A DNA stretch of 64,000 bases from Candidatus Babeliales bacterium (GCA_019746485.1 JAIERW010000005.1:15078-79077); one strand, 5' to 3'. Positions 31,806 through 58,972 are shown, numbered from the stretch's first letter. Numbers and translations are program-made. The notes: generated by a model from the sequence alone, not told the origin.

Positions 31806-32688
31806 TTATTTATTGTTAATATTAGGCCTTGCTGCCAGCTCACTCTACGGCGCAGCATCATCATCTGGCCCAAGCACACAAGCTACGAAAAAAATTGAAC
31901 ACTACCAAAAACTTGCACAAGACAAAGATAACAGCTATTTGAAGCTGGCAATCATCGAAAGATTTATAGCTGAAAAAAATATAGTACAACTTTCCTCCCT
32001 CAGAGAAAAAGCAAGTAGCGCAGAAGAGATAACAGAGATCGACACACAATTGAAAAATCTCGAAATGCGAATAACCAAAGCACTAGAAATTATTGAACAC
32101 TATGCCACCTATCCATTTGCTGATCGTGTTTCTAAAACAACCAGATTGATAATACTAAGCACACAAGACCAAGCGAAACCAGAACAAGCCCTGCTTAAAC
32201 ATCATGCAGCAACGGAAGAACGCATAGACAAAATAGCATTGGAAATGGCCGAGTTAACCCGAAGCACAGGCTTGGGAATGATCCCGCGTCTAAAATTTGA
32301 AAGGCGCTGGAGAATCTATCTTGGAAAAGCTCCACGAGCTAGTTCAAAACGAAAACCGGTAAGTATCAATAATTGCCATAAAAACTATGAAGCCAACTAC
32401 TTGGCATACGTTCTTTTAAAGGTATTCGTTCTTGAACTAGATCATGAAATAATACGCCAAGATATTATGGATGATGCTGCAGAACAACAACTTAAGGCAA
32501 TATCAAAAGAAATAAAGCGCTTGGAACACTATGCAGAAAAAACAGAGGGCTACTCCTTTCATAAAGAAATAGAGCGCTACGTTGACGACATTATAGAAAA
32601 AAAATACGGACACCTTGAAGGCCAAGAATTAAGAGAAGTAATTCAAGTTGAAGTTGATGCAATCCGGAAAAGACTATCAGCTGATTAA
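31792..32688 (+). CDS. secreted coiled-coil protein, six-gene family member 2
   Basis: aagaggttatacc-ATG. Signal MKTFNYLLLILGLAASSLYGAASSS. Basic block GLGMIPRLKFERRWRIYLGKAPRASSKRK (from 32269) plus an extra roughly 110-aa C-terminal extension. It overlaps member 1 by 14 nt. Confidence 0.75.
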   Translation: MKTFNYLLLILGLAASSLYGAASSSGPSTQATKKIEHYQKLAQDKDNSYLKLAIIERFIAEKNIVQLSSLREKASSAEEITEIDTQLKNLEMRITKALEIIEHYATYPFADRVSKTTRLIILSTQDQAKPEQALLKHHAATEERIDKIALEMAELTRSTGLGMIPRLKFERRWRIYLGKAPRASSKRKPVSINNCHKNYEANYLAYVLLKVFVLELDHEIIRQDIMDDAAEQQLKAISKEIKRLEHYAEKTEGYSFHKEIERYVDDIIEKKYGHLEGQELREVIQVEVDAIRKRLSAD

Positions 32689-32704
32689 AAAAAGAGGTTA
32701 TATC

Positions 32705-33334
32705 ATGAAAAAATTAAATTATTTATTGTTAACATTAGGTCTGGCTGCCAGCTCTCTACGGGGCGCAGCATCATCGTCAAGTTCATCATCATCCTCAAGC
32801 TCGCACGAAGAAGAAAAGCTCAGCAAACAAGAGCTCGAGCAAAGAATGAATGAATATTATGTAACAAAGTTAATTTTCCAAGAAGCTTGGATAGAAAATG
32901 AAGTCCAATATCTTATGAATTTAAAAAAACAAACAAGTGATGCAACAGCACTCGCTAATTTAACCGCGAAAATTCGAGCATACAACACCCAGCGAATAGC
33001 AATAAACAATGCTATAGACAAACACAACAAAGCTTCATTTTTTAAGAAAACCGAAAAAGATATGGAAACAATGATTACTACAATCTTCACCTATGATTCT
33101 TGCCAATTAAAAAAAGCACTTGAACAAAACATACAAGAAGCTTCAGAAAAGCTTGAAGCTACAAAGTTAGCGCTAAAAAGCTTGACAGAACCAATCGAAA
33201 AAACACCAAAACAAAACACCGGATTAGGAATAACACCTCGACCAAAACCATCAAACAAGAAACAACCAGCCCCAAAACCAAAACTTTCTCTTCGTGCAAT
33301 CGCTATGCAAAATTCAGCAAAATTACAAAGCTAA
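32705..33334 (+). CDS. secreted coiled-coil protein, six-gene family member 3 (poly-Ser after signal peptide)
   Basis: aagaggttatatc-ATG at 32705. MKKLNYLLLTLGLAASSLRGAA followed by 11 Ser (32771-32803). Basic tail GLGITPRPKPSNKKQPAPKPK. Confidence 0.75.
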   Translation: MKKLNYLLLTLGLAASSLRGAASSSSSSSSSSSHEEEKLSKQELEQRMNEYYVTKLIFQEAWIENEVQYLMNLKKQTSDATALANLTAKIRAYNTQRIAINNAIDKHNKASFFKKTEKDMETMITTIFTYDSCQLKKALEQNIQEASEKLEATKLALKSLTEPIEKTPKQNTGLGITPRPKPSNKKQPAPKPKLSLRAIAMQNSAKLQS

Positions 33335-33360
33335 AAAAACTTAAAAACCAAGGACAAATC

Positions 33361-33978
33361 ATGAAAAAGTTAAATTATTTATTGTTAACACTAGGCCTGA
33401 TTGCAGGCTCATTACACGGTGCAGCAAGATCAGACTTAGAAAATATTGCAAAACAAACGCAAAGCCCAAGCAAGCAAACGCTCGAAAGCCAACTTCACGA
33501 GTGCAATTTACAGATTTTAATTTTCCAAGAATTCTTATTAGAACAAGAAGTTGCCATGTTCAAATCTTTGCAATCACCAACAACTCCTCCTGACGCACTA
33601 GAACGCATCAAACAAAACATTATACAAATTAACACGCAACGATTTACATTACAACAAGCAATAAAAACCTACAATTCGGCTCCATTTGCCAGCGATATTC
33701 ACACAAGCACAGATATAACAATTCGTGAGTGTAGTGAAGACGAAGATGGAGAAACCCTTGATTATGAAACAACAACAGAAGCAATAAACAAAGAAATCAA
33801 ACAACTCAAAAAAACGGTAGAAAACATACAACTAAGCATGCAGGCAAGCAAAGGGTTAAGCCGAACACCTCGTCAACAATTTGCAACAAATCCAGCACGA
33901 CGCAGACAGACACAAAAATCAGCAGCCGGACCAAAATGGCGTATTGAAGCCCTCAAACAAGATGCCCGCGAAGACTAA
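33361..33978 (+). CDS. secreted coiled-coil protein, six-gene family member 4
   Basis: MKKLNYLLLTLGLIAGSLHGAARS. The first roughly 70 nt are nearly identical to member 3. Basic tail KGLSRTPRQQFATNPARRRQTQKS. Confidence 0.75.
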   Translation: MKKLNYLLLTLGLIAGSLHGAARSDLENIAKQTQSPSKQTLESQLHECNLQILIFQEFLLEQEVAMFKSLQSPTTPPDALERIKQNIIQINTQRFTLQQAIKTYNSAPFASDIHTSTDITIRECSEDEDGETLDYETTTEAINKEIKQLKKTVENIQLSMQASKGLSRTPRQQFATNPARRRQTQKSAAGPKWRIEALKQDARED

Positions 33979-33992
33979 AACGAAAGCTCACC

Positions 33993-34592
33993 ATGAAAAA
34001 AATATACTACGCACTCATGCTTACTTTTATTACCAACAACGCTCACGGTGCTGCCAGCTCAACAGCTGATCGAAAAACTACGCTCGCTGTTACTGATAAA
34101 AAAATTAGCATTATTGGCAATGAAAAAAAGATCATTCTTTTGAGCCACCAGCTAAGTTTTTATGCCGAAGAGCTCCAAAGATATTGCACACAAAAAACAG
34201 CCTTAAACGCTGAGACACAAAAATTAAGTCAAGATGCCGACCAAATTGCTCTTGCACTGTCATTAAACCCGCATGATACAAGCTTAGAAACACAACTGCA
34301 AGAAGCTGAAAAAGCAATAAGCGAAAAAAGCGGTGTAACGATAGAATTAATGTTTGAAAATATGATCATTGAAGAAGAGTGCCAAACAACTGCAAAAAAA
34401 CTTAAAGAGCATCAAAAAAGACGTCCAACTTTGGGCACCATCGACAGCATAGTCAAAGCAACGAAACAAGCAAGAATGGAACTTGAAAGAGACAATATTA
34501 CTCATGAAAAATTAGAACAATTCTATCGCAAAAAATTAGACAAAATAAAGCAAGCACGTCTAGCAGAATTCGATGAAGAAGAGGACAACTAA
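33993..34592 (+). CDS. secreted coiled-coil protein, six-gene family member 5
   Basis: MKKIYYALMLTFITNNAHGAASS. Coiled-coil body with an acidic C-terminus FDEEEDN. Confidence 0.7.
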   Translation: MKKIYYALMLTFITNNAHGAASSTADRKTTLAVTDKKISIIGNEKKIILLSHQLSFYAEELQRYCTQKTALNAETQKLSQDADQIALALSLNPHDTSLETQLQEAEKAISEKSGVTIELMFENMIIEEECQTTAKKLKEHQKRRPTLGTIDSIVKATKQARMELERDNITHEKLEQFYRKKLDKIKQARLAEFDEEEDN

Positions 34593-34605
34593 AAAAGAGG
34601 TTATC

Positions 34606-35628
34606 ATGAAAAAAATATATTACGCACTACTCATGCTCAGCTTTATTGCTGGCAACGCTCACGCAGCCGCAGGCTCACCACAAGAAAACACAAGCTCAAA
34701 ACAAGATCGGCTCGAACGCAGAGAAGCAATTAAAGCAAGCCTGCACCATCCTAATCGTAAGCTGCGCCAAGACATAAACTTACGCGTTATTCTTGGGCAC
34801 AAAGCCGTAGAGCCAACCATAAAAATCGTAGACAACGAAAAAATGATCATTATATTAGGCCACAAACGTAAACTTTATCGCAGTCAAATTAGAGAATATC
34901 GTCACCAAGAAAAACAATTGGCTGACAAAATAGAAAAATTAAGACAAAAAATTTCCGAACTCAAAAAAGAAAAATCATCAAACAAATCGATCAAAAGACA
35001 AATAAAAAACCTGGTAGAGCGAATACGCATAAAAAACAACCAAGCATACAATGTATCCATTGATAAAATGACGCTAAAAAGTACGCTTACCTACATTAAT
35101 AATAAACTTGATGCCCTCATTGCTGAAAGAAGTAGTTACCATGCAAATCCCATGGCTCAACAAGCCAAAGACAAGGCACACCAAGAATTTGTAGAAAGCA
35201 GAATTATTGGTCACGAATTACGCTGCATTTACTTTGATAAATTAGCAAGAGCAAAGCGTGCAGAACTTGCAATGATAAATGATGAGAAAAGCCCATTTGC
35301 AATGGCAAGCTACGAGCCTCAAAGACAATCTCTTTTGGGAATTAACCAGCAGCTTTGCCAATTGTGTGTTTCGCGCCAAGAATATGCCCACTACCCAAAC
35401 CTGCAAGCACTCAAAGAAAAAGCATACACAATTGCACAAAAATTAGAACAAGACGCCAGAGCCAGGCACAACAGACTTGCAACGACAAGCATATTATTTT
35501 CTTGGGATGATAGCGATCAAAAAAATAGTGAACGAGAAGAGCGCATGAAAAAGAATAACGAACATCGAATAATGAAAGACTCCTTAAATCTTCTGGAAAG
35601 AGCAGTCAAAGAGTACATGTTCGAATAA
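34606..35628 (+). CDS. secreted coiled-coil protein, six-gene family member 6
   Basis: aagaggttatc-ATG at 34606. MKKIYYALLMLSFIAGNAHAAAGS. It shares IIGNEKKIILLSHQL / VDNEKMIIILGHKRKL with member 5. Confidence 0.7.
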   Translation: MKKIYYALLMLSFIAGNAHAAAGSPQENTSSKQDRLERREAIKASLHHPNRKLRQDINLRVILGHKAVEPTIKIVDNEKMIIILGHKRKLYRSQIREYRHQEKQLADKIEKLRQKISELKKEKSSNKSIKRQIKNLVERIRIKNNQAYNVSIDKMTLKSTLTYINNKLDALIAERSSYHANPMAQQAKDKAHQEFVESRIIGHELRCIYFDKLARAKRAELAMINDEKSPFAMASYEPQRQSLLGINQQLCQLCVSRQEYAHYPNLQALKEKAYTIAQKLEQDARARHNRLATTSILFSWDDSDQKNSEREERMKKNNEHRIMKDSLNLLERAVKEYMFE

Positions 35629-41317: not shown

Positions 41318-43018
41318 ATGAGATTTATGCGCAAACGTAAAACACTTCTTACTACCTGGCTGCTGCTTGTTTGCAGCATAGCTAATCTTATGTCGCTCAA
41401 CCAAGACCTCGTCCAAAAAAGACCAAAACTAACCATTATCATGGTAGTTGACCAGTTTGCACACCACTACATCCAAAAGCTCAGACCCCACCTAAACCAC
41501 GGGATCAAGATGCTTCTTGAGCAAGGCGTTTGTTATGAAAATGCCTGCCACCCCCACGCCATTCCTGAAACCTGCCCAGGCCACAGCTCGTTGAGCACCG
41601 GAACCGTGCCTACCTACCACGGCGTTACCGGCAACCGCTGGTACAACCAAGACGGCAAACCAGTAGAATTTATTGAAGATGAAGGCAGAGCCTGCAGTGC
41701 CGAAGTTTTTAGAGATCAAGAAACAACGTATGATGACCATCAACGCTCTTCAAGCCACATCATGGTCGACGCTTTTGCCGATCAATTTGTACTTTCGTCG
41801 CCACAAGAAAAACGCAATATTGCTATCTCGCTTTCCATAAAATCAAAGGCTGCCATGGCTACCGCTAACCGCATGGGCAAAGCAATTTGGTTTGACGATA
41901 AAACCGGCCGCTTTACCTCAAGCAAACATTATTACAACAAACTGCCCAACTGGCTTGAAGAGTTTAACGAACAAAAGGCGCCCACCAAGCTTGAAAACGT
42001 TCGCTGGGAAACGCTTTACCCACGCACCAGCGCAGCGTATGATTTTCCGCACATTGATAACTATGATTATGCGGCATTAGATTTTCCATTAATTTCAGAA
42101 AAACCAATTCCTATCGATCGCGATAACGAATGCCCGTACGATCTTTACAACAAAACACCCCACTCAAACCAGCTTCTGTTTGATTTAGCAAAAAAATGTA
42201 TCGACAGCACCATCGCCCCCAACGCGCCCAACGATATGGTTATGTGGCTGTGCTTGAGCAGCCTTGATTTACTTGGCCATTATTATGGCCCAGACAGCTT
42301 GGAAGCGATAGACATGGTGTACCATTTAGACCAACAAATTAAAGAGTTTATGTTATATGCACAATACAAAATGGGTAAGTCGAACGTGCTCTTTGCACTA
42401 ACCGGCGACCACGGCATACAACCAATTCAAGAGCTTTCATACAAAAAAGGCATTACGCAGGCCCAGCGCGTTATGGTTCAGCCATTGATTGAAAAAATGA
42501 ATGAGTTTATTGAAGAAAAGTACGATCTTAAAAATGCAGTACAAACATTTGAATCAACCTACTTTGTAATGAACAAACAACAAATGGCAACCAAAAATAC
42601 TGAAGAACAAGCAGCTATCTTGACTGATCTTAAAGACATGTTACTTCAAGAAGCGTCAATCAAGCGCGTGTGGACGCGCGACGAGCTGCACAAAGCAACG
42701 TTTCGTACACAAGATGTTGAAAGCTATTACAAGAACCATTTGTACGACTCGCGCCTGGGCGAGCTGATTATCATGCCACAACCTTACTGCCTGCTCACAC
42801 GTTATCCAAAAGGCTGCTCGCACAATACGCCCTACGACTACGACACACACGTACCGCTTATTGTGTATCAGCACGGGCGCTTTGCGCCAAAAACAATCAC
42901 GCAAAAAGTTTTAATACCACAACTGCCCACCACGCTTTCGTATCTTTTGGGCGTTGTGCAACCATCTGCCGGCACCTTTCCTGTGCTGCCAGGCATTTTT
43001 GACGAGGAAAGCCCATGA
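41318..43018 (+). CDS. alkaline-phosphatase superfamily protein, nucleotide pyrophosphatase/phosphodiesterase (NPP)-like, secreted, copy 1
   Basis: Signal LLTTWLLLVCSIANLMS. VVDQFAHHY; metal/nucleophile region PETCPGHSSLSTGTVPTYHGVTGNRWY (T.P.H..l.TG..P..HG...N); LDLLGHYYGP; LTGDHG; HNTPYDYDTHVPLIVY. Confidence 0.7.
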   Translation: MRFMRKRKTLLTTWLLLVCSIANLMSLNQDLVQKRPKLTIIMVVDQFAHHYIQKLRPHLNHGIKMLLEQGVCYENACHPHAIPETCPGHSSLSTGTVPTYHGVTGNRWYNQDGKPVEFIEDEGRACSAEVFRDQETTYDDHQRSSSHIMVDAFADQFVLSSPQEKRNIAISLSIKSKAAMATANRMGKAIWFDDKTGRFTSSKHYYNKLPNWLEEFNEQKAPTKLENVRWETLYPRTSAAYDFPHIDNYDYAALDFPLISEKPIPIDRDNECPYDLYNKTPHSNQLLFDLAKKCIDSTIAPNAPNDMVMWLCLSSLDLLGHYYGPDSLEAIDMVYHLDQQIKEFMLYAQYKMGKSNVLFALTGDHGIQPIQELSYKKGITQAQRVMVQPLIEKMNEFIEEKYDLKNAVQTFESTYFVMNKQQMATKNTEEQAAILTDLKDMLLQEASIKRVWTRDELHKATFRTQDVESYYKNHLYDSRLGELIIMPQPYCLLTRYPKGCSHNTPYDYDTHVPLIVYQHGRFAPKTITQKVLIPQLPTTLSYLLGVVQPSAGTFPVLPGIFDEESP

Positions 43019-44727
43019 TTAAAAAAATAGCCAAAAGCCTGGCAGCAATTTTTGTGATTAGCATACTGCTGGCATACGTGCGCCCCTCGAGTGAGCTCGG
43101 GACTAAAGGCGAGGTTAAGGTAGCAAAACCAAAAATCGTTCTCGTTTTTGTAGTCGACCAATTTGCCCATCACTACCTGGCTATGCTCAGGCCTTACTTG
43201 AACTTTGGTTTAAAAAAGCTTGTTGAAGACGGCATAAATTTTGAGCGCGCCAACCATCCGCACGGCGCACCGGCAACCGCAACCGGCCACGCTACCTTGA
43301 GCACCGGCACCTGCGCCAAAGACCATGGCTACATTTTAAATGCCTGGGCCGACGGCAACGGTAAAAAGATTCGCGCAACGCAAGACGACGCCCAAACAGC
43401 AGCAGTGCTGGGCCGCAACGGACCTATGAACTATGGCGCTTCGCCAAAGCTTTTAATGGTAGACACACTTTCAGACCAACTGGTAGCACAATCTACACCC
43501 GAGCACAAAAATACCGTTTTCTCGCTCTCGTTTAAAACGCGCGCCGCCATTGCTATGGCAGGCAAGGGGGGGCATGCTATTTGGTTTAACGACGATGAAA
43601 ATATGTTTACCAGCAGCAAAGCATACTACCAAGAAATTCCTGAATGGGTGCAAGATTTTAATAAGCGCAACGACGTTGCAAAAATTAAAGAAATCGACTG
43701 GCAGTTATTCCATCCCGAAAATCATGAAATCTACGAGCAATTTGCCAACAAAGATTACCGCTTTGCCGGCACCACGCTCCGTCTGGCTGGCAATAAAACA
43801 GCCTTAAATTTTGGTCAACGCGAAAAGGCGGGAAAATATGATGATCAGCAATTATTTCAACGTACACCCATGGCCAACGGTATGCTCGCCGATTTAACCA
43901 AAGAATGTATTGATAAGCATTTTGAAAAAGACGGAAGTGAAACACTTTTTGTATGGGTTGGTTTTTCGGCACTGGACAAAATTGGCCACGTGTTTGGGCC
44001 CAACAGCTTAGAAATGATCGACACTATTTGTCATTTGGACAAACAAATTGAAGATTTAATGAACTACGCACAAAACAAAGCAGGCGCACACAATGCTCTT
44101 TTTGCTGTTTCAGGCGACCATGGCGTTTCACCAATTCCTGAGTTAATGCACGAGCGAGGCTTTGGGTTTGTCAGCCGCCTGCTCAATAAAGATTTAACCA
44201 ACGGTATGAACAACCTGATTGAAGAAAAGTATGGCATAAGCGGCATTGTAAAAACATTTAAAACGACCATGTTTTATCTCAACAAGCAAGCTCTGGCAAA
44301 AGTTGATCAAGAAAAACAGAACGCAATTATTGAAGATTTAAGAAATTATTTACAAGCGCAACCGGGCATGTGTAAAGTTTTTACAACAAAAGAATTAGTT
44401 GAGTCAACCTTTGACCCGACTTCGTTTGAATATTTGTATCAAAACCAAACGTATGTGGGCCGTACCGGCGACTTGATTTGCATGCCAAACATGTACTCAT
44501 TTATTGCCAAACGCGCCAACGGCACCTCGCACAAAACGCCGTACGACTACGACACACACGTGCCACTTATTTTGTATCAAGCAGGTTCACTTGAAAAGAA
44601 ACGGATTATTGAAAAGGTTTCTACAACACAACTAGCACCAACACTGGCCAAAATTTTGCAGATTAACAAGCCTTCGGCAGCAGCGCAGCAAGTACTACCA
44701 GGCATTTTTGAAGAAGAAGGAAATTAA
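43015..44727 (+). CDS. alkaline-phosphatase superfamily protein, NPP-like, secreted, copy 2
   Basis: A paralog of copy 1 with a 4-nt ATGA overlap. VVDQFAHHY, HGAPATATGHATLSTGTCAKDHGYILNAW, LDKIGHVFGP, VSGDHG, HKTPYDYDTHVPLILY. Confidence 0.7.
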   Translation: MIKKIAKSLAAIFVISILLAYVRPSSELGTKGEVKVAKPKIVLVFVVDQFAHHYLAMLRPYLNFGLKKLVEDGINFERANHPHGAPATATGHATLSTGTCAKDHGYILNAWADGNGKKIRATQDDAQTAAVLGRNGPMNYGASPKLLMVDTLSDQLVAQSTPEHKNTVFSLSFKTRAAIAMAGKGGHAIWFNDDENMFTSSKAYYQEIPEWVQDFNKRNDVAKIKEIDWQLFHPENHEIYEQFANKDYRFAGTTLRLAGNKTALNFGQREKAGKYDDQQLFQRTPMANGMLADLTKECIDKHFEKDGSETLFVWVGFSALDKIGHVFGPNSLEMIDTICHLDKQIEDLMNYAQNKAGAHNALFAVSGDHGVSPIPELMHERGFGFVSRLLNKDLTNGMNNLIEEKYGISGIVKTFKTTMFYLNKQALAKVDQEKQNAIIEDLRNYLQAQPGMCKVFTTKELVESTFDPTSFEYLYQNQTYVGRTGDLICMPNMYSFIAKRANGTSHKTPYDYDTHVPLILYQAGSLEKKRIIEKVSTTQLAPTLAKILQINKPSAAAQQVLPGIFEEEGN

Positions 44728-44751: not shown

Positions 44752-46833
44752 GTGATGAAGTTTATAAAAAGTACGTTACTTTTTTTGATTACACTTGGTT
44801 TGCATAGCTCTTGCGGCGCAAGTGGCGCGCGAATGAGTGCGCAAAGCATGCGGGGAATGAGCACGCTAGAACAGTACGGCAAACCCTTGCCACCACCACA
44901 CGCAATACCAATGCCACCGCCAGGCGGGCCACCAGCTGTTTCTCAACCGCAAGCAAGACCCACTTCTGAACAAAGCTTTACTCAGCAATTGCAGGCAGTA
45001 AAACGAACTCCTGTAGAACAACCAGTGGGTCAGCCACACGGATTTTTAAGATATACCGACGGTCCTTTACCAGCAACGCCACCAGCCGGCAAACCAAAGG
45101 GATTTCTTGAATATTCAACTCCTAATCAACAAGGCGGCTTGTCCAGATTTGGTACACCGCAAGCTCCACCAGTGCACGCAACGCCAACATCACAGCCCGT
45201 TCAAGCAAAACAAAAAACAAGCATGTGGAGCAACACAAAAACTCAAGCAAAAAGTTTTGGTGCTACACTAAAAAAAGCTTTAGGACTCGGATCTAAAAAA
45301 TCAGCAAAAAAAACTGATCAAGTTTTAACTACGCTCGTTGAACAAAAAACGTCGCCACGCTCTAAGCTCAAAGATATGGCACCTGATTCCATTGCACAGC
45401 AACGCGCACTTACAACGCTACAAATCGTACAACACCCAGGTTCAGACCGACCACTAGATCCGCCAGGAAAACAACGCGATCCAAGTATCATTCGCACACC
45501 AGCAAGCCCGCCAACACCCGAACAGCAAACAAGAATACTCGAACAACAAGTAAGCCAAACGCAAAAAAGAAGTGGAGACCTACTCAAAGAAATGAAAGAA
45601 ATCCAGGCACAACAAAAAAATCCAGACTTAACACCAAAACAACAAGCTAAATTACAGGAGCAGCTTGAACAAAAAACACCAGCTTACGTGCGAGAAATGA
45701 TCAAGTTGGGAAGCTTAGAAAAAGCTCAAAAAACTCAGCAAGCAGAAAGAATTAGCAAAGAAATGGGTGCTTTTCCTTTGCCATCACAGAAACAAACAAC
45801 GCAAGCTCTATTGCCACGACCTGAACCCACAACAACGGTAGCACCTCCAAAACCACCAATGCTTCCAGAACTCTTGCAACCTCGCCCACGCTCACTGCCG
45901 CCAATACCAACTCAGACACCAACTGAGCAGCCAAAGCAACAACAATCAACGCCGCCTCCACCAGTGCCAAGAGATACCCCAAGCAGGCAACCAGAATCAG
46001 AAAAATTTATAGGACCACTACAACCAAAACCAACATTAACAAGATTAAGCGACTTACCAACACCAACGCCACTTGGTCCTAAACCAAGCTCAGTAACCCA
46101 ACAAGAACAACAACCTCCTGCATCACAGCCAACACAAACTCCTCTGCAAAAATTTGGCCCAGCACCACAACCAACACCCCTTCAAATGATGGGACAGGCA
46201 CCGCAACCACCTACATCACAAACACCACCGCCTCCTCCACCAGCACCGGTTGAAACCAAACAATCTGCAAACTTGCTAGAACAAATTCGAGCAGGAGCCC
46301 AGTTGCAAAAAGTTGACCGACCAACTCAGCAAGGGACTCAACCACAATCAACGCCTCCGGCACTAGACCCTGCATTGGTAGCAGGACTACAGGCTCGTAG
46401 AAAGAGCCAAAGATTGGATGTTCAAGATAACCAGGAAATAGCTTCTGCAACCAAAACGCCTCAACCAACAACTACCACACCACCAAGTACAGCAGCAAGC
46501 TTTGGTCAAACACCGCCACCACCAATAGCCGGCACATTTCCGCCAGCTCCACCACCGCCACCGGCACCAAGCCAAGAAAGATCACCACGGCCAGTTAGTT
46601 TAGATACCGGTTTGCAACAACAAATTCAAGCAGGTAATTTTAAACTGAGAACAACTGAACAAAAACCGCGCCCACTCTCAACACCGCCAACAACAGCACC
46701 AAATCTTCAAGGTACACTTGAAGGAGCGCTTGCAGACAGAGGGCTGATACCAGCTGCTCAAACACAAAAAAAACCACCAAAAACAGCAGAAGAAATAGCC
46801 GCAAAACGAGCCAGAAAAGAAGAGTGGCAGTAA
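44752..46833 (+). CDS. secreted Pro/Gln-rich protein with polyproline tracts and two WH2-like / WASP-central-like modules (cluster protein A)
   Basis: GTG at 44752 or ATG at 44755 after RBS aggag. Signal MKFIKSTLLFLITLGLHSSCGA. PPPPPPAP (46225-46248); SANLLEQIRAGAQLQKVD (46264-46317); ALVAGLQARRKSQRLDVQDNQE (46372-46437); PPAPPPPPAP (46540-46569); LQQQIQAGNFKLRTTEQK (46612-46665). It ends KEEWQ*. Confidence 0.8.
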   Translation: MMKFIKSTLLFLITLGLHSSCGASGARMSAQSMRGMSTLEQYGKPLPPPHAIPMPPPGGPPAVSQPQARPTSEQSFTQQLQAVKRTPVEQPVGQPHGFLRYTDGPLPATPPAGKPKGFLEYSTPNQQGGLSRFGTPQAPPVHATPTSQPVQAKQKTSMWSNTKTQAKSFGATLKKALGLGSKKSAKKTDQVLTTLVEQKTSPRSKLKDMAPDSIAQQRALTTLQIVQHPGSDRPLDPPGKQRDPSIIRTPASPPTPEQQTRILEQQVSQTQKRSGDLLKEMKEIQAQQKNPDLTPKQQAKLQEQLEQKTPAYVREMIKLGSLEKAQKTQQAERISKEMGAFPLPSQKQTTQALLPRPEPTTTVAPPKPPMLPELLQPRPRSLPPIPTQTPTEQPKQQQSTPPPPVPRDTPSRQPESEKFIGPLQPKPTLTRLSDLPTPTPLGPKPSSVTQQEQQPPASQPTQTPLQKFGPAPQPTPLQMMGQAPQPPTSQTPPPPPPAPVETKQSANLLEQIRAGAQLQKVDRPTQQGTQPQSTPPALDPALVAGLQARRKSQRLDVQDNQEIASATKTPQPTTTTPPSTAASFGQTPPPPIAGTFPPAPPPPPAPSQERSPRPVSLDTGLQQQIQAGNFKLRTTEQKPRPLSTPPTTAPNLQGTLEGALADRGLIPAAQTQKKPPKTAEEIAAKRARKEEWQ

Positions 46834-46865
46834 AACTAACGTAAACAAAGCAAAAAAAACTATGA

Positions 46866-46892
46866 GGGGATGCATATTGGCATCCCCTTTTT
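46866..46892 (+). terminator. rho-independent terminator after protein A
   Basis: ggggatgc-atattg-gcatcccc followed by ttttt. Confidence 0.85.
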
Positions 46893-46916
46893 CATTAAAG
46901 AAGTTTCCTCAAACCA

Positions 46917-46946
46917 TTGAGTTTGCTGAGTGCAAATTGCTATAAT
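46917..46946 (+). promoter_or_regulatory. candidate sigma-70 promoter for protein B
   Basis: ttgagt, 18 nt spacer, tataat. The same ttgagt-N18-ta(t/c)aat layout recurs at 49183. Confidence 0.5.
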
Positions 46947-47000
46947 TAAGCCATGAATAATGCTGCCAGGAATTTTTGAAAAAGAAAAAGGGAACTGCCC

Positions 47001-49073
47001 ATGAATAAAAGATATTCTTACGTGCTTGTTGTAGCGTTTTTAATGCTGTGCACTCAGCCTTGCCAGGCGTTACCAAACTGGCAAAGTATTCAATTTAAAG
47101 TTGCCGATTTTGCTACTGCTGCAAAACAAAAAATAAGTACTGTGTTTCAAAACGTACAAGATGCACGCAAAACCAAACAAGCAATTCAACAAGAAACAAC
47201 AAGCTTAAAAAAATGGACCCCACAAGACGCAACACCAGCAAGACTTCAGCAAATTGAAGCCGAAAAAAAAGCTGGCCTTGATATCCGTCGTGCAGAACGA
47301 ACCGCAGATTATAACCTGAACGCACAATACCGCCTTCAAACATTTGAGCAACGACAAGCACAAAAAAAAGGTGTTGAGTACTTCGTTCCTTCGCCAACAC
47401 TTCAAAAACGTACAGCACTTACTGAACAAAGTTTAAGTAATATTACCGCAAAGCTACCTGTTTCGTATGGTTCGCCAAATCTTGGCGTCATTACCAGCCC
47501 AACTGTTCGTAACGCATTAAGCAGACAACAAGAAGAAGCAGCCTTGCAACAAAAGCGTCAAGCATTAGGAGCTCCTGCACCAAGTCAAACGGCACCATGG
47601 CGACCAGCATATGAAGCTTCATTTGAACTTGGAGAAAGACCCAATTTTCCTCAAAAGATTGGTATTCAATCACCACAGCAACAAGAGCGGCTTGAACAAA
47701 ACAAACAGTTGCGTGAACAGCGGCTTGCGCAACCAACTAGTCCAACACCAACCTCAATAACAACGGCAATACAGCCGCAACCAGTAGTTACACCACCGGA
47801 ACCACAACCAAGTCAACGCTGGATTAGTGTACGACCTACTGAATTACAAATACCACCAACACCAACGCCTCGCCCTTCCGTTGTTAGTTCAACTCAGGGA
47901 AGAATACAAACGATGCAAGAGTTTCAACGTCTTGTCCCTCAACCTGTCACCACCAAACCAAGTGCTCCAGACATAAAACAACCGGCAACAGAAACAACAC
48001 AGCCATTACAAACCGGTCGCATTTCGCAAGAAGCACAAGCACGGATTAGACCAATACAGCATTTTCAAGAACTCGCAGCAACACAACCAGTAGCCACCGA
48101 ACAACAAAGAACCATGATGCAAAAAGCGCAAGAAGCAGCCAAAACCGCTGGCAAAATGACGCTGAAAGGCCTTGAAAAATTGGCTGATATTTCACAGGCG
48201 CCCTCTCGAGGTATAGCAACCGTTCGCGATGCCGCTTTAGAAAAGGCATGGCAAGGAACCAAAGTTGTTGGCAAAAAAGTTGCCAGCGAAGCTCAAGTTG
48301 CTGGTCAGTGGGTTAAAGAACAAGTAAAACCAACACCAACTTCACAACTCTCACCAACTATGCAAAGAATTGATGCATCAATGAAAAGTACTGGTGCAGA
48401 ATTGGACAAACTCCAACGTAGCTATGAAAAAGAAAAAGACCCCGCAAAACAAGCCGAACTTGCAACTCAAATAAAAGCAAAAACCACAGAATTGAGTCAA
48501 CTGTCTGCAAGTTACACACGACGAGAAATCGAAGAAGCGTCTGCCGTACGGCCAACAACGCCCCTTGAAGGAAGAGCGCAACAACAAAAAACACTTGCTG
48601 AATGGCAAGCTGGTCAAACGCAAAGAAAGCTTCAAGAACAAAGAATAGCCGAGGCTGCTTGGGAAGGCACAAAAGCGCCAGCAACTCCAGCACCTCAAAA
48701 ACCACTATCAACCACGCTAACATCTGAATACAACGCACCTCTTCCTCCACGACCAACAATAACAACAACACCGATGCTCTCAAAACAACCATCAACTCAA
48801 GCTTCTCCACTCACGGGGCTGAGTGAAACACAACCTTTGCCTAAACTTACGCAAGGTCGCGCCGCAATACCAGCTGGCACGCGCAGACCGCCAACGCCTA
48901 GAGCCACAATAGAAACAACACTCGCAGCCCCAGATGCAGCTGGGCCAAGACAAGCCCCAGCGGGACAGACACAGGCACCGGCTCCAGCAGCAACCATGGC
49001 ACCCGGTAGGCCCGGTTTTGGCAACATCGATCTTGGTAGCGTTACTTTGAGAAGAACCGAACCAACGCCATAA
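47001..49073 (+). CDS. secreted Pro/Gln/Thr-rich protein (cluster protein B), C-terminal WH2/thymosin-like motif
   Basis: Signal MNKRYSYVLVVAFLMLCTQPCQA. It shares MMQKAQEAAKTAG (48114-48152) and GQWVKEQVKP with protein C. It ends GNIDLGSVTLRRTEPTP* (motif at 49026-49061). Confidence 0.8.
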   Translation: MNKRYSYVLVVAFLMLCTQPCQALPNWQSIQFKVADFATAAKQKISTVFQNVQDARKTKQAIQQETTSLKKWTPQDATPARLQQIEAEKKAGLDIRRAERTADYNLNAQYRLQTFEQRQAQKKGVEYFVPSPTLQKRTALTEQSLSNITAKLPVSYGSPNLGVITSPTVRNALSRQQEEAALQQKRQALGAPAPSQTAPWRPAYEASFELGERPNFPQKIGIQSPQQQERLEQNKQLREQRLAQPTSPTPTSITTAIQPQPVVTPPEPQPSQRWISVRPTELQIPPTPTPRPSVVSSTQGRIQTMQEFQRLVPQPVTTKPSAPDIKQPATETTQPLQTGRISQEAQARIRPIQHFQELAATQPVATEQQRTMMQKAQEAAKTAGKMTLKGLEKLADISQAPSRGIATVRDAALEKAWQGTKVVGKKVASEAQVAGQWVKEQVKPTPTSQLSPTMQRIDASMKSTGAELDKLQRSYEKEKDPAKQAELATQIKAKTTELSQLSASYTRREIEEASAVRPTTPLEGRAQQQKTLAEWQAGQTQRKLQEQRIAEAAWEGTKAPATPAPQKPLSTTLTSEYNAPLPPRPTITTTPMLSKQPSTQASPLTGLSETQPLPKLTQGRAAIPAGTRRPPTPRATIETTLAAPDAAGPRQAPAGQTQAPAPAATMAPGRPGFGNIDLGSVTLRRTEPTP

Positions 49074-49112
49074 CTCACACCAGCATGAAGCCCACGTAAA
49101 CTGAATAGAATT

Positions 49113-49150
49113 AAAACCAAGAGGGGTGCGCGCGCACCCCTCTTGGTTTT
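49113..49150. terminator. long palindromic terminator after protein B
   Basis: aaaaccaagaggggtgcg/cgcgcacccctcttggtttt. Confidence 0.85.
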
Positions 49151-49182
49151 AATTAAAAATATTTCTTTTATAAATAAATTTA

Positions 49183-49212
49183 TTGAGTTTTATCAACCAC
49201 AACTGCTACAAT
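49183..49212 (+). promoter_or_regulatory. candidate sigma-70 promoter for protein C
   Basis: ttgagt, 18 nt spacer, tacaat. Confidence 0.5.
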
Positions 49213-49280
49213 CAAAGTAGTGAATATGAACAAATACACACATTGGTACTTTTTAAATAGTATTTTAAAGGAGATAAACC

Positions 49281-50714
49281 ATGAAGATTATGCGTAGATT
49301 TATGCTGGCACTTGTTGCTTGCTTGTTTGCAAGCGTAACAGTGCAGGCGGCAGGAAGAAGACCGTCAGGCCCACCAGCAGGGTCTCCTTTCCAACCAGGC
49401 GCCGAAGCATTTCGACAAGCCGCACAACTAAAAACCGTACAAGGACCTCAACAAAGTACTTGGCAAAAAATTAAGGCCGCTGTCGCAAACCCAGTTCAAA
49501 CAGCAAAAAATATCTGGTCAGGCACAACAACTCAACCAAAACAAGTACATAGCGGCGAGTTAAGCTCAGCTCCTGCTGGCGGCATGGTTCGCAGCATGCA
49601 ACAACAAGTAAGAGGGCAAATGACGCAACCGGCAGCACCTGTCACCACCAAAGGCCTTGGTTACTACGTCCAACAACCCTTTCAAGCTGCAAAAACAGCT
49701 GCACAATCAGCTTATCAAAAAGTAACAACGCCAAGCGGACCAGCACGATACACGCCAGCAGTTGGCGAACAACCACAAAAACCACAATACAGCACCGTAC
49801 AAAAGGTTTTAAGTCCTGTTCGCTATTACCAAGATAGCAAAGCTTATAGCGCCGACAAAAAAACAGCACAACAGCAAACTGCCAACTTGCAAGGAGAAAT
49901 GAAAGCCAAAGGGCAATTGCTAACACCGGAAGAAACCGCAAAAAGAACCCTCATGCAAAAAGCTCAAGAAGCTGCAACAGCCGCTGGCAGCAAAGTTGCC
50001 TCCGGAGCACAATTTGTTGGCGGACAAGTTCGTCAGGCAGCAACAGCTACTGGCCAAGCCGTAGGGCAAGCTGGCCAATGGGTTCAACAACAAGTACGAC
50101 CTGCTCGTCGTGAAAATGTTGCAGCACCAACGCCGCTTGTACCCGGAGCTCCAGGCACAGTTACTGGCAGAATGCAAACACCAACTGGTCAGTATGTTGA
50201 TGTAACAAGACGCCAAACACCCGCAGTTGGACCAGTACAACCAGCTTCACCACCACAACCTGAACCAATAACACAAAAAAGTCTTGAAGCACGAGAAAAA
50301 GATGTACAAAAATTAATGGCACAATCAAACCAAACTAACAAAGAAGCTCTTAAAGATCCTTATAATCAAGAAAAACAAGCAGCAGCTCAAGCTGCACAAG
50401 ACACGGCATTTGCAGCACGCACACAGCTAACACAGGACAAAAAGGCCTTTGCAGCCCAAACAGGAGCTACGCCAACGCGACCAGCTGCACAAATACCCGC
50501 TCCATCGCCAGAACAGCAAAGAATCACTGAACAAAATCGCGGCATACTACAAGAGGCTTTAAGCAACCCACTTGGCCGCTATGCAACCCAGCCAGCTCCA
50601 AGCCAACAGCGACAACCTCTGCCTATCCCGCCAGTAGGGCCAGGAAAACCGTCAACCTTTATTCCTCAATCTCGCCCAGTCCAACAAGATGTAGCGCATG
50701 CTACCAACTTCTAA
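49281..50714 (+). CDS. secreted Gln/Pro/Ala-rich protein (cluster protein C), paralog of B
   Basis: Signal MKIMRRFMLALVACLFASVTVQA. LMQKAQEAATAAG (49950-49988) and AGQWVQQQVRP match B. Confidence 0.8.
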   Translation: MKIMRRFMLALVACLFASVTVQAAGRRPSGPPAGSPFQPGAEAFRQAAQLKTVQGPQQSTWQKIKAAVANPVQTAKNIWSGTTTQPKQVHSGELSSAPAGGMVRSMQQQVRGQMTQPAAPVTTKGLGYYVQQPFQAAKTAAQSAYQKVTTPSGPARYTPAVGEQPQKPQYSTVQKVLSPVRYYQDSKAYSADKKTAQQQTANLQGEMKAKGQLLTPEETAKRTLMQKAQEAATAAGSKVASGAQFVGGQVRQAATATGQAVGQAGQWVQQQVRPARRENVAAPTPLVPGAPGTVTGRMQTPTGQYVDVTRRQTPAVGPVQPASPPQPEPITQKSLEAREKDVQKLMAQSNQTNKEALKDPYNQEKQAAAQAAQDTAFAARTQLTQDKKAFAAQTGATPTRPAAQIPAPSPEQQRITEQNRGILQEALSNPLGRYATQPAPSQQRQPLPIPPVGPGKPSTFIPQSRPVQQDVAHATNF

Positions 50715-50734
50715 AAACTTTAAAAACTACTACG

Positions 50735-50772
50735 ACGGGGGATGCATTTGCGCATCCCCCGTTTTCTTTTTT
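50735..50772 (+). terminator. rho-independent terminator after protein C
   Basis: acgggggatgc-atttgc-gcatcccccgt followed by tttctttttt. The stem is related to the terminator after protein A. Confidence 0.85.
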
Positions 50773-50778
50773 AAACCG

Positions 50779-50808
50779 TTGCTTCCGCCCTCTCAACCAT
50801 GCTACAAT
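50779..50808 (+). promoter_or_regulatory. candidate sigma-70 promoter for the small gene and protein D
   Basis: ttgctt, 18 nt spacer, tacaat. The caacca..gctacaat context resembles the 49183 promoter. Confidence 0.4.
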
Positions 50809-50861
50809 TATTACAGATAGAAAGACAAAAACCACATAAAAAATTAAAAAAAGGTACCTAC

Positions 50862-51242
50862 ATGGATGTTGGCATGAAAATAAAACTCTTCGTGGCCGCA
50901 ATAACACTCACGGCATCATATGCCATTACCACTTTTAGCCCGGGGCCTGAAGAACTCCCACAACAAAGCCTTTTTTCTTACGCCGGCAAGACAGTAAAAA
51001 AAACTGCTAAAGACATTATTTTTGTGGTCAGCGGCAACTACACACGCGGCAGCACGCAACCGGTACGCCAACAACGCCAACAAGCAAAGCTAAGCGCTCT
51101 CTACCAACAGATTATTGCAGGACAAGTACACGAAAATGTTGGCAGCAAAATTGCAAAACTTGAGGCTAAAATAAAAATGAATTACGGCAAAAGCACCTTA
51201 CAGGCTCTACAACAAAAATGTGGCATTGCTCTTACCGACTAA
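50862..51242 (+). CDS. small secreted protein (hypothetical) within the Pro-rich cluster
   Basis: Start at MDVGMKIKLFVAAITLTASYA (ATG at 50862 or 50874). About 125 aa. It contains LYQQIIAGQVHENV, which is only weakly WH2-like. Confidence 0.55.
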   Translation: MDVGMKIKLFVAAITLTASYAITTFSPGPEELPQQSLFSYAGKTVKKTAKDIIFVVSGNYTRGSTQPVRQQRQQAKLSALYQQIIAGQVHENVGSKIAKLEAKIKMNYGKSTLQALQQKCGIALTD

Positions 51243-51256
51243 TCAAAAGGAAAAAA

Positions 51257-53548
51257 ATGGTACGTCAACAGCACCTTTTTTTATTCGCACTCATTACCGC
51301 GCTAGGCATAGCGCACACGCCCGTGCAGCCGGCAGCGCTTTTGAGACAGATGTTTAAACCTTTCCAGGCAAAAAGCACCGCTAGCCAAAAAGAAAAAAGT
51401 GATACGAGTGCAGCAGGCGTTTTTGACAAAAGCCCAACAGCGAAAAAACCAAAGACTCTAACCCCCGATGAAGAGCTTGCTCAAAGATTAGGAACACCCC
51501 GCCCAGCGCCAACCCCTGGCGCTCCACAACCATTTATGCCCGTACCTCCCGGCCTTGGGCACCCACCAGCACCCACGGCCGGCATTGGCGCTCCAGCACC
51601 AGTAGCAACGGCAAAGCCACCGACAAGCGGCATGACTAACCAAGGAAAACCCGGTGTGTTTGGCAAAACTAAAGATGCCTATTCTGATATTACAACACGC
51701 CTTGAAACGGCACAAAAAACAGCACGTGATGCAATTGCCACCGGCACTCCTGGCCTTTTTCAACTACAAAAACAAACAACGCAACAACTTCAAACTGGTC
51801 AACAAGTAAACTCTTACAGTGCAGACCCCAAAACAAGTTCTTATGCTGCAACGGGCACTAAAAGTCCTTACGAAGGTGGACAAAGCCGCTACGCAGGTAC
51901 TGGCACTCCAAGCGTTTATACAACAGCACCTGGTTCAAGCGCCTACGCACCAACACCACCACCACTGGTACAACGACCTTCTGCACCAACTCTGCCTCAG
52001 GGCATTCGACCAACGCCAGCGCAACTGGCGCGACGACCACAAGCTTTTGAACCAAGTCCAACAACACCAACCCGTCCGACACTACCACCAAAACCTATGT
52101 ATATGCAGCGCCCAGCAACTCCGCCAGCAACACTACCAAAACCTGCCGGCTCGCCTGCTGCATGGGCAGAAGTTGTGACTAAACGACCAACGCAAACCCC
52201 GCCAACAACTACTCACCCACAAACACCAGCACCAACACTGAGCAAAGCACAAGAAGCAGAACTCAATAAACAAATAAAAGCTCATGCAGCACAGCAAAAA
52301 GCGCAAGCTGCCGCTGACGCACAACAACAAAAAGAACAAGCAGTGATGCAACAACGACTTAAAGAAATCGAAACAGCAATAGCAAAAGGCGACCCCAAAA
52401 CATTAAAAATATATGATGATCGAGCCAAAGCTATGGGCCTTACACGTGACGAATACATACTTGGTCTGCAATCAGGAGCACTTACTCAAGCACAACGCCG
52501 ACAAATGCGCAGCGAACAGGATGCAAGCCGCGGCATGCTTTACAACATGACAATGGGAGATATGCGTCGAGACATTCAACAAGCAAAAGACGCTCTTACA
52601 TCGCCAATCCAAACTATGAAAAAAGAATGGGCACAGTCAATGAGCCAATTCAAAAGCCCGCTACGAGAGTTCCAGCAAGCCACTCAACAATTTCGGACAG
52701 ACAAAGCAACACTACGAACTGATATAACCAGTGCTATAGAAAAAATTAAACAATCAAGTGCTGCCAAAACGATCTTAAGTGCAAAAGATCAAGCCGATAT
52801 CAAAGCAAAAGAAGTTGCACTTAAAGCTCGTTATTATGGCCAACCAGATGCCGCTAAAAAAGTTAAAGCAGAACTTGATGTTTACAAAAAAGGTGTAAGC
52901 GACAAGCGCGCTTTGACAACAATAGAAAATCAATCAATTGTCACCAAACGCCAAGAAATTAAACAAGACTTAATGCAACAGGCACAAGATCATTACCAAG
53001 CAGCTGAAGCACGTGTTACACAAAAACAAGAATCATTAGCTGCTCTTGGCGAACCAAAGCAGGGAGAAGCACCAGATCTCATTGCACGCCGCAAAGCACT
53101 TACAACTTCTCTTGCTGCTGACCAAAAACAACTTGCTAACCTCCATCCAGAATCACCGCAGGTAATGCAGCAGATAGCAAAACTTGAGCAAAAGGCTATG
53201 ACTGACTTTACCAAGCAATTACCGCAAGGACGCGCTGAAGCTCGTCAGATCAGCGAAGAGATAAAGGGCCTTCTTTCAGAACAAACTCGTGCAAATCCTG
53301 CAAGAAAAACAGAGATTACACAACTGATCAACGAAAAAGCGGCACGCTATAACGACGTAACAAGCCCTCCGGTAACAGCAGTACTGCCAACACCAACGCT
53401 CGCACTGCCACTTGGCACAAATCCTGCAACGCGTATTCAACAACAACCAGCACCAACAGCCACTATCACTGGGCAAAGCCCGCCAATCACTCAACAGTCT
53501 GGTATTCAACGTAGTCAGACTACAACGACTGTTACGGTTTATGAATAG
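51257..53548 (+). CDS. secreted Pro/Thr/Gln-rich and coiled-coil protein (cluster protein D)
   Basis: ATG at 51257 after aaagga. Signal MVRQQHLFLFALITALGIAHT. The N-terminal half is P/T/A-rich and the C-terminal half is Q/K/A coiled coil. DEELAQRLGTPRPAP resembles the C-terminus of protein E. Confidence 0.8.
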   Translation: MVRQQHLFLFALITALGIAHTPVQPAALLRQMFKPFQAKSTASQKEKSDTSAAGVFDKSPTAKKPKTLTPDEELAQRLGTPRPAPTPGAPQPFMPVPPGLGHPPAPTAGIGAPAPVATAKPPTSGMTNQGKPGVFGKTKDAYSDITTRLETAQKTARDAIATGTPGLFQLQKQTTQQLQTGQQVNSYSADPKTSSYAATGTKSPYEGGQSRYAGTGTPSVYTTAPGSSAYAPTPPPLVQRPSAPTLPQGIRPTPAQLARRPQAFEPSPTTPTRPTLPPKPMYMQRPATPPATLPKPAGSPAAWAEVVTKRPTQTPPTTTHPQTPAPTLSKAQEAELNKQIKAHAAQQKAQAAADAQQQKEQAVMQQRLKEIETAIAKGDPKTLKIYDDRAKAMGLTRDEYILGLQSGALTQAQRRQMRSEQDASRGMLYNMTMGDMRRDIQQAKDALTSPIQTMKKEWAQSMSQFKSPLREFQQATQQFRTDKATLRTDITSAIEKIKQSSAAKTILSAKDQADIKAKEVALKARYYGQPDAAKKVKAELDVYKKGVSDKRALTTIENQSIVTKRQEIKQDLMQQAQDHYQAAEARVTQKQESLAALGEPKQGEAPDLIARRKALTTSLAADQKQLANLHPESPQVMQQIAKLEQKAMTDFTKQLPQGRAEARQISEEIKGLLSEQTRANPARKTEITQLINEKAARYNDVTSPPVTAVLPTPTLALPLGTNPATRIQQQPAPTATITGQSPPITQQSGIQRSQTTTTVTVYE

Positions 53549-53651
53549 CCCTTCAACACGGTGCCAGCAAATTTTGTTGGATTATTGTTTTATGACAAGC
53601 GTTTGTGCTATTTTAAATAAAAGGAAATCTGTTTTTTGGGGAGAATAGAAA

Positions 53652-58972: not shown

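Follow-up and report, generated by a model that had tools for sequence, protein, structure and literature searches.

The stretch of DNA analysed here (the window, 64,000 nucleotides, GCA_019746485.1 JAIERW010000005.1:15078-79077) belongs to a metagenome-assembled genome contig that the NCBI record assigns to 'Candidatus Babeliales bacterium', phylum Dependentiae. Between positions 44752 and 58972 it carries a cluster of eight genes, here called A, B, C, the small gene, D, E, F and G, all of which are annotated by NCBI as 'hypothetical protein' (K2X40_01735-01770). The same cluster occupies the same position in two related genomes, GCA_019749895.1 (the K2W90 genome, L004) and the closed long-read genome CP064957.1 (L001), and its products, which appear to be exported and largely disordered, diverge far more rapidly than those of its neighbours. 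The cluster probably acts on the host cell, judging from these features and from a motif in protein A that resembles the actin-binding WH2 motif of N-WASP.

The eight co-oriented plus-strand genes that a preliminary description of the region had listed were recovered as real open reading frames (ORFs) by ORF calling, and their lengths agree (Table 1), that of D being counted from its second ATG, a start that is backed by the orthologs; the small gene encodes 122 to 147 residues depending on the start chosen. A ribosome-binding site of the Shine-Dalgarno type precedes each of the eight genes. All eight products begin with a signal peptide, as had been proposed, composed of a basic n-region (one to four Lys/Arg), a hydrophobic core of at least 11 residues (Kyte-Doolittle hydropathy of the core 11-mer 2.0-2.9) and small residues at -3/-1, features that are also present in the orthologs; these assignments were made by inspection, not with SignalP. 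Protein C was considered as a possible lipoprotein because a conserved VAC fits a lipobox; the position of this VAC, just 13 residues after the start and within a hydrophobic core that is longer, makes such a status uncertain.

Strong terminator hairpins follow five of the eight genes (A, C, E, F and G), in keeping with the earlier statement that most members have their own; the hairpin after D is weak, and none was found after B or the small gene. Promoter-like sites of the extended -10 type lie upstream of B, C and the small gene, all resembling TTGAGT...TGCTAYAAT, and shuffled sequences contain no fewer promoter-like sites than the region does. The eight genes are distributed over at least six transcription units.

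Proline, glutamine, threonine and alanine together make up 43-50% of proteins A to G, compared with 31% of the small gene product and 23% in the 19 other ORFs of the window. Order-promoting residues account for 17-24% of A to G (median 37% in the remainder of the window), in agreement with the disorder previously ascribed to these proteins, and by a crude proxy, the charge-hydropathy boundary, 64-96% of the 50-residue segments of A to F count as disordered. That these residues are encoded almost only by cca, caa, aca and gca was an overstatement: CCA accounts for 62%, CAA for 85%, ACA for 45% and GCA for 51% of the respective codons, against a background of 50, 78, 30 and 41%. Codons ending in A are enriched, and the G+C content at third codon positions is 0.25-0.33, compared with 0.39 in neighbouring genes; the overall G+C content of the cluster is higher (0.44-0.49) because of the Pro and Ala codons. 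Long spurious ORFs on the antisense strand show that the sequence is poor in stop codons. No collagen-like feature was recognised, since none of the members has as many as four GXY triplets in succession.

None of the eight proteins contains a Pfam or NCBIfam domain above threshold, and in ten ortholog sequences the only such domain is WH2, found in two orthologs. Neither TonB_C nor TolA domain III was detected in these eight proteins and ten ortholog sequences in Pfam and NCBIfam searches extended to E values of 0.5-1, nor was any OmpA, LysM, beta-barrel, lipobox-type or other anchoring domain found in members or orthologs, the C-termini being P/Q-rich or helical. The reported absence of TonB, OmpA and autotransporter domains thus applies to members and orthologs alike, and no fusion to a TonB or peptidoglycan-binding domain, as might be expected of ordinary envelope spacers, was found in the two other lineages. 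Relatives were scarce by every route: pattern scans of GTDB species genomes (with the D alignment and MatE) and of JGI (Joint Genome Institute) metagenomes (with the G and A alignments) returned none, word-indexed protein searches with A and with G returned one each, and a HMMER profile of the structured part of G, run against 1.84 billion representative proteins, gave four hits, namely G, two orthologs and a split fragment. Profile searches of the PDB with the D and G domains gave only coiled-coil-type or chance matches, the sole match of the D domain being a myosin-rod chimera (E 3e-4) that indicates coiled-coil character only. As far as these sequence searches reach, relatives of the cluster are confined to one narrow clade.

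Table 1. Genes and other features of the cluster (positions counted from the first nucleotide of the window)
Feature	Position	Strand	Description
Gene A	44752..46833	+	693 aa; GTG start, signal peptide, P-rich, disorder-like, WH2 motifs
Poly-proline PPPPPPAP	46225..46248	+	A 492-499, 8 residues before WH2 motif 1; kept in K2W90 genome (regex scan)
WH2 motif 1, LLEQIRAGAQLQKV	46273..46314	+	A 508-521
Helix-like segment LDPALVAGLQARRKSQRLD	46363..46419	+	A 538-556, at position of WASP 'C' (connector)
WH2/beta-thymosin-like motif 2, LQQQIQAGNFKLRTT	46612..46656	+	A 621-635; pattern scan; kept in K2W90 genome
C-terminal 44 residues of A	46699..46830	+	Weak Ciboulot/beta-thymosin resemblance; ends KEEWQ; mostly kept in K2W90 genome
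Terminator hairpin after A	46864..46889	+	10-bp stem, 6 GC pairs, T run
Promoter-like site for B	46917..46946	+	TTGAGT-18-TATAAT, upstream TG; 10/12 match
Gene B	47001..49073	+	690 aa; P/Q/T/A-rich after the signal peptide
Module shared by B and C	48105..48332	+	B 369-444, MQKAQEAA...GQWVKEQVKP; best-conserved part of B in K2W90 genome
Promoter-like site for C	49183..49212	+	Similar TTGAGT...TGCTAYAAT
Gene C	49281..50714	+	477 aa; N-terminal 216 residues conserved, rest unalignable between genomes
C module GTVTGRMQTPTGQYVDVTRRQTP...	50136..50351	+	C 286-357; at C-terminus of D in K2W90 genome
Terminator hairpin after C	50734..50763	+	12-bp stem, 8 GC pairs, T run
Small gene ('s')	50874..51242	+	122 aa from NCBI start, ORF up to 147; not P-rich; 14 nt before D
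Gene D	51257..53548	+	763 aa; signal peptide, P-rich N-terminal third, helical middle, P/T-rich tail
D helical/coiled-coil-like domain	52271..53380	+	46-52% identity in two other genomes
Weak hairpin after D	53564..53580	+	7-bp stem
E leader and signal-peptide repeat	53611..53715	+	105-nt direct repeat, 71%; copy at 54956-55060 before F
Gene E	53652..54839	+	395 aa; most P-rich member (17.7% Pro), ends PPLPPR
Terminator hairpin after E	54869..54894	+	11-bp stem
Gene F	54997..55926	+	309 aa; P-rich N-terminal part, conserved C-terminal half; 60% identical ortholog
Terminator hairpin after F	55947..55978	+	12-bp stem, 8 GC pairs
Gene G	56075..58972	+	965 aa; conserved signal peptide, ~330-aa disordered linker, two helical repeats, Q/A/P-rich tail
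G Gly/Met-rich hydrophobic segment	57167..57349	+	Residues 365-425; Kyte-Doolittle 19-mer peak 1.77; kept in three lineages
G tandem helical module duplication	57515..58687	+	Residues 481-666 and 691-871; ~190 aa; 32% identity, E 5e-25 (blastp)
Terminator hairpin after G, cluster end	58994..59021	+	12-bp stem, 7 GC pairs

Protein A and the WH2 motif of N-WASP

WH2-type motifs had been attributed to both A and B. In A, a motif like that of N-WASP does follow a poly-proline tract: LLEQIRAGAQLQKV is identical to LLDQIREGAQLKKV of N-WASP at 11 of 14 positions, the other three being conservative changes (E/D, A/E, Q/K), and it matches the N-WASP WH2 in PDB entries 3m3n and 2vcp with E values of 1.4e-5 and 7e-5 (phmmer), in an alignment that reaches into the connector. 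Within the 2vcp match, the helix-like segment LDPALVAGLQARRKSQRLD is aligned to IVGALMEVMQKRSK of N-WASP; all 19 of its residues are identical in A of the K2W90 genome, and a similar segment follows the WH2 motif in the CP064957.1 relative. The Pfam WH2 model (PF02205) has a gathering score of 23.1 bits, which is exceeded by the K2W90 ortholog (27.4) and the CP064957.1 relative (34.1), whereas A of the window scores 16.7 bits (E 0.006, below the cut-off). The K2W90 ortholog (P0017) is found at the same position and is 70% identical to A, with a dN/dS of 0.41 and a dS (synonymous divergence) equal to that of the flanking genes.

The second WH2/beta-thymosin-like motif, which on its own has no significant match in the PDB, appears as LQQQIQAGNFKLRTTEQKP in the comparison with the K2W90 genome and is conserved or largely conserved there, as are the C-terminal ~17 residues of A (...KTAEEIAAK...). 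These two motifs are the only matches to the WH2 pattern in all six frames of the 64-kb window. The resemblance of the last 44 residues to Ciboulot (3u9z) is not significant (E 0.28; phmmer, PDB). No acidic stretch was found in A, which ends ...AAKRARKEEWQ and is net basic there. For B the claim could not be confirmed: Pfam WH2 was detected neither in B of the window nor in its K2W90 ortholog, the C-terminal 57 residues of B have no PDB match at E values up to 10, and there is only an LRRTEP-type resemblance by eye. Elsewhere in A, a block that is almost invariant between lineages (45030-45120, residues 93-123) contains a duplicated motif, PHGFLRYTD ... PKGFLEYST.

A is similar to the N-WASP VCA region in that poly-proline lies upstream and that, where the C region would be, there is a conserved amphipathic segment containing an RRK motif. 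Unlike N-WASP, it has no acidic tail (the C-terminus is basic and ends EEWQ), no GBD, WH1 or other WASP domain, and is otherwise unrelated. Bacterial actin effectors with WH2 motifs or proline-rich regions include Chlamydia TarP, Vibrio VopL/VopF, Rickettsia RickA, Burkholderia BimA and Listeria ActA. Legionella RavH is of the same WH2/proline-rich class (PMC13481308). Disordered proline-rich and WH2 effectors are thus already known in other intracellular bacteria, and A is like them in being a mostly disordered protein in which proline tracts are joined to a clear WH2 motif and to one or two WH2/thymosin-like motifs that are weaker. It differs from them in having no homology outside the ~20-residue motif, no acidic Arp2/3-binding region, and a Sec signal rather than a type III or type IV secretion signal, an autotransporter or a Gram-positive anchor.

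Sequence turnover and module exchange in related genomes

The K2W90 genome has these genes in unchanged order, and their neighbours are the same as well (two Phosphodiest genes upstream; MatE, gatC, gatA, dus and mreC downstream). CP064957.1 carries a more diverged version of the locus, in which a PDDEXK_2 gene is inserted and both G and MatE are split. The inserted gene (5159-5995, Rpn-type nuclease or transposase-like) lies in the middle of the cluster on the opposite strand; the splits of G and MatE into two ORFs each may reflect frameshift errors. The term 'island' used in the preliminary description does not suit the cluster: its position and gene order are identical in three lineages, so that it is not a mobile island, and the PDDEXK_2 insertion in one genome is the only sign of mobility. 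No tRNA gene or integrase gene was found at the cluster borders in the window.

The flanking proteins are 92-99% identical to those of the K2W90 genome, compared with 73% for the small gene product, 70% for A, 60% for F, 50% for D, 35% for B and C, and 30% for E, with gaps in 3-34% of the alignment columns (18% in B) and every frame intact. By the Nei-Gojobori method, dS is 0.29-0.61 and dN/dS 0.02-0.09 in the flanking genes, whereas dN/dS in the cluster is 0.23-0.54, and non-synonymous change has been 5-20 times faster in the cluster than in its neighbours. In A, the small gene and F, dS is similar to that of the flanks; it is 1.0-1.7 in B to E and in G beyond residue 270. Heavy turnover by insertion and deletion has left each of the eight frames intact in two lineages, and the majority of them in the third. 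Conserved parts include the signal peptides; in C, the first 216 residues (52% identical to the CP064957.1 ortholog); in D, the helical middle; in F, the C-terminal half; and in G, the hydrophobic segment and the duplicated helical module. The proline-rich stretches cannot be aligned between lineages. The orthologs of the small gene product are 73% and 55% identical to it, and its AlphaFold2 model is too poor to interpret (pLDDT 43). The CP064957.1 counterpart of E, with 314 residues, also ends PPLPPR.

In protein G, the hydrophobic region at the N-terminus is very conserved, and there are two more hydrophobic segments, of which the Gly/Met-rich one may be membrane-inserting. The linker of G is P/T/A-rich in the window, S/T-rich in the K2W90 lineage and K/P/T-rich in CP064957.1, with a length of ~280-330 residues throughout. 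The structured helical domain of G has an amino acid identity of 47-56%, versus 96-99% for neighbouring proteins, in a comparison that made use of a composite contig described below. An AlphaFold2 model of the C-terminal domain of G consists entirely of long helices and is of low confidence (pLDDT 46). The motif KPLPPLPP is also present in G.

Two marine assemblies, scaffold_8 of TARA ERZ28668165 (L002) and Logan ERR599231 (L003), were considered as a third strain in which G would be recombinant and E broken by a 47-kb inversion, and were rejected as such. The left part of the TARA scaffold is 99.8-100% identical to the window and the right part, which starts within G, has 100% identity to another contig (L005), the N-terminal G sequence of which matches the K2W90 genome. 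The junctions in these assemblies fall at 7337|54586 of the window (inside E, corresponding to the 47-kb inversion) and at about 56880, and reflect either natural recombination or the chimeric assembly of two strains that occur together. As a composite of two lineages, the TARA scaffold is not independent evidence and adds no third lineage.

Short islands of similarity had been taken as signs that the cluster is an expanded family. Most of the islands are as described: KPEYIQQ occurs at 54000-54020 and 56237-56257, D[EP]ELA[QR][RK]L occurs in D and E, and GQWV..QV.P and MQKAQEAA are present in both B and C, although C reads MQKAQEAATAAG and so departs from the pattern as it was written. Common ancestry is borne out, in an all-versus-all BLASTP comparison within the window, for B and C (76 residues, E 5e-5) and for the signal peptides of E and F (44% identical, E 2e-4), and not otherwise; A and G have no significant partner among the members. 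The leaders of E and F, called near-identical, are 71% identical over 105 nucleotides. KPEYIQQ was rejected as a functional motif because its two copies are identical at 19 of 21 nucleotides, have dissimilar flanks and are absent from the orthologs. Proteins A to G reach an E value of 1e-4 at best, whereas true paralog arrays in the same window reach 1e-40 to 1e-150, and the description as one expanded family does not hold. Exact k-mers common to members are in excess of local shuffles (three 7-mers, versus 0.22). In the K2W90 genome, residues 689-758 of D match residues 286-357 of C of the window (53% identity, E 6e-14; blastp), E and F have a central module in common (E 1e-5), and the C-terminus of D of the window recurs, by eye, at the end of E. 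Because the members are connected by a few shared, shuffled modules and not by broad similarity, the cluster is a mosaic of mobile modules.

The motif W[QS]xx[KQ], said to be N-proximal in most members, is present in A, B, C and E and absent from the other members, and in A it is found at residue 159, not near the N-terminus. Its occurrences (A 159; B 27, 417 and 535; C 61; E 44) include six of the 19 tryptophans of A to F, where ~0.6 would be expected by a rough estimate from composition. Several of these tryptophans are conserved in the orthologs, and the sequence may be a short amphipathic motif.

Possible function and alternative explanations

Two tandem TLC ATP/ADP translocase paralogs in the window (26756-29617, 33% identical) are a hallmark of energy parasites, and together with genes for Lon, DnaX and Der and gatCAB-type genes they identify the window as core chromosome of an energy-parasitic member of the Dependentiae, so the cluster belongs to a lineage of obligate intracellular parasites. 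Type II secretion (the T2SS) is part of the core genome in TM6 (PMC4776705) and the sole secretion system found in Babela (PMC4378268, PMC4776705), and ankyrin proteins with signal peptides are assumed to be secreted into the host in TM6/Babela (PMC4776705, PMC4378268). For the phylum as a whole, no secretion system other than the T2SS is reported. No T2SS genes were found in the 64-kb window.

The interpretation favoured here, given about an even chance of being correct, is that the cluster is a hypervariable locus of conserved position encoding exported, disordered, host-facing proteins that would use Sec and then the T2SS, among which A would mimic an actin-monomer-binding protein. After Sec export, the proteins would leave the cell through the T2SS or stay exposed on its surface, and would then meet the host cytosol or a host membrane. 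There, A may bind G-actin and, via its poly-proline, profilin-actin as well, so that local actin assembly would be altered. The other members could be flexible carriers of proline docking motifs, such as KPLPPLPP in G and the PPLPPR with which E ends, and the coiled-coil and hydrophobic modules of D and G could serve in oligomerisation or membrane attachment, with host pressure driving the rapid turnover. Export beyond the inner membrane, a host target and the roles of B to G are what we infer from sequence. A bolder version is possible but doubtful: a hypervariable set of disordered effectors that shuffle modules and, delivered by way of Sec and the T2SS, would rewire the actin cytoskeleton of a protist host, with A as a WASP-mimicking assembly factor and the fast-evolving members as determinants of host range.

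Several points weigh against the proposal of host-directed effectors. A Sec signal leads only to the periplasm, and the usual cargo of the T2SS is folded proteins rather than long disordered ones. Motifs of the PxxPxR type are expected by chance in proteins of such composition. The WH2 motif of A in the window is below the Pfam threshold, A is the only member with a recognisable eukaryote-like motif, and A is not a full VCA, for it has no acidic Arp2/3-binding tail. The hydrophobic regions of G would suit a membrane protein of the bacterium itself. As dN/dS is below 1 throughout, the rates can be explained equally well by relaxed constraint on low-complexity sequence and by an arms race. A signal peptide is also present, by eye, in about half of the window's other ORFs, and ~44% of the genes of Chromulinavorax (Dependentiae) have one (PMC6561590), so that eight signal peptides in a row are weak evidence.

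The main alternative, judged rather unlikely, is that most of the proteins, D and G above all, are structural parts of the envelope or surface, such as flexible spacers that span the periplasm or project from the cell, or components of a coat or fibril, retained on the cell and variable because of low constraint or surface exposure. The Sec signal, which alone reaches the periplasm and is frequent in the phylum, the roughly constant length of the G linker in spite of its changing composition, the conserved hydrophobic regions of G, and the long helical, coiled-coil-like domains of D and G would all suit such a role, and G and D resemble TonB and TolA spacers in having an N-terminal hydrophobic segment followed by a Pro-rich or helical spacer. 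Unlike those, they have neither TonB_C nor TolA_III in members or orthologs and the cluster provides no exbBD or tolQR context; the other anchoring domains sought in members and orthologs were likewise missing, the WH2 motif and poly-proline that are kept in three lineages have no known role in a bacterial envelope, and the rapid evolution even of the structured domain of G would be unusual for a housekeeping scaffold. Were the proteins envelope spacers, the extreme sequence turnover at a fixed chromosomal position would itself be striking.

The cluster might also be no functional unit, with A (perhaps also B) an actin-binding effector and the other six unrelated, lineage-specific exported orphans that are its neighbours by chance in a genome rich in genes for exported proteins. 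Besides having the only eukaryote-like motif, A is best conserved (70%), shares the dS of the flanks and is possibly co-transcribed with the genes upstream; neither A nor G has significant similarity to other members, and the window contains other arrays of unrelated exported proteins. This separation is thought unlikely, since the unusual composition and preference for A-ending codons are common to the members, modules are common to B, C, D, E and F, shared k-mers are in excess and gene order is kept in three lineages, all of which indicates that at least B to F have a common history. If the majority of the ORFs were low-complexity sequence in decay or without function, held open by chance through A-rich, stop-poor codons, this would account for the low identity and many indels between close genomes, for the long spurious antisense ORFs, and for the apparent interruption of E by a rearrangement in one relative, though that scaffold is a composite of two lineages. 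Intact frames in two lineages and mostly in the third despite the indels, dN/dS values of 0.23-0.54 and not ~1, and the conservation of signal peptides, ribosome-binding sites, terminators and internal domains make this last explanation very improbable.

Known effectors offer partial parallels to the favoured interpretation. EspF and EspFU/TccP of enteropathogenic and enterohaemorrhagic Escherichia coli are disordered, proline-rich repeat effectors that dock on host SH3 and GBD domains. The proteins of the cluster are like them in concept, being disorder-like, proline-rich and putatively secreted, with short linear motifs (PxxPxR and PPLP in E and G), and unlike them in having no tandem repeat units or homology, motif counts that are not above those expected from composition, and another secretion route. 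The ankyrin effectors of Babela and Chromulinavorax (PMC4378268, PMC6561590) belong to the same phylum, are presumed to take the Sec-T2SS route, and are lineage-specific and clustered, but theirs are folded repeats in large paralog families, in contrast to the disordered, proline-rich orphans without a Pfam domain described here. Ankyrin-repeat proteins and secreted hydrolases are the candidate Dependentiae effectors named in the literature searched, in which no cytoskeletal effector and no such locus is reported for the phylum; WH2 is not mentioned in the TM6 genome papers PMC4776705 and PMC4378268. On the bolder version of the favoured interpretation, A would be the phylum's first cytoskeletal effector, and its export by the general secretory route would be unusual for a long disordered protein. 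Parasites of the phylum Dependentiae are widespread in protists, and the locus provides a testable entry to host manipulation in an almost unstudied phylum, as well as posing the question of how long disordered proteins with Sec signals cross the outer membrane.

Chromosomal setting and other exported proteins of the window

Directly upstream of the cluster (41318-44727) are two tandem exported paralogs of the Phosphodiest/alkaline phosphatase family, 41% identical to each other, in a layout that is the same in the K2W90 genome. The second of them ends 24 nucleotides before A with no terminator between, so that A may be co-transcribed with the phosphodiesterase genes. Downstream of G there is a MatE gene, likewise in the other genomes.

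Several further arrays of exported orphan proteins were observed in the window. Four paralogs of ~320-346 residues, 31-67% identical, are encoded in tandem at 19464-23696; the one that was searched against Pfam has no domain. Six small exported proteins encoded in tandem at 31230-35628 have near-identical signal peptides (MKKLNYLLLTLGLAASSL.GAA) and diverged mature parts, and one of them has a run of nine serines. At 3770-6565, a 931-residue protein with matches to MutS domains III and V has an apparent signal peptide, MVIFNKKFLLSSLLALGLLAQPMQTHA, which is odd for a protein of the MutS type. Two adjoining genes at 6582-8609 encode exported coiled-coil-like proteins, each with a C-terminal hydrophobic segment, both of which end AAAA (...EHEAAAAA and ...FQTAAAA).

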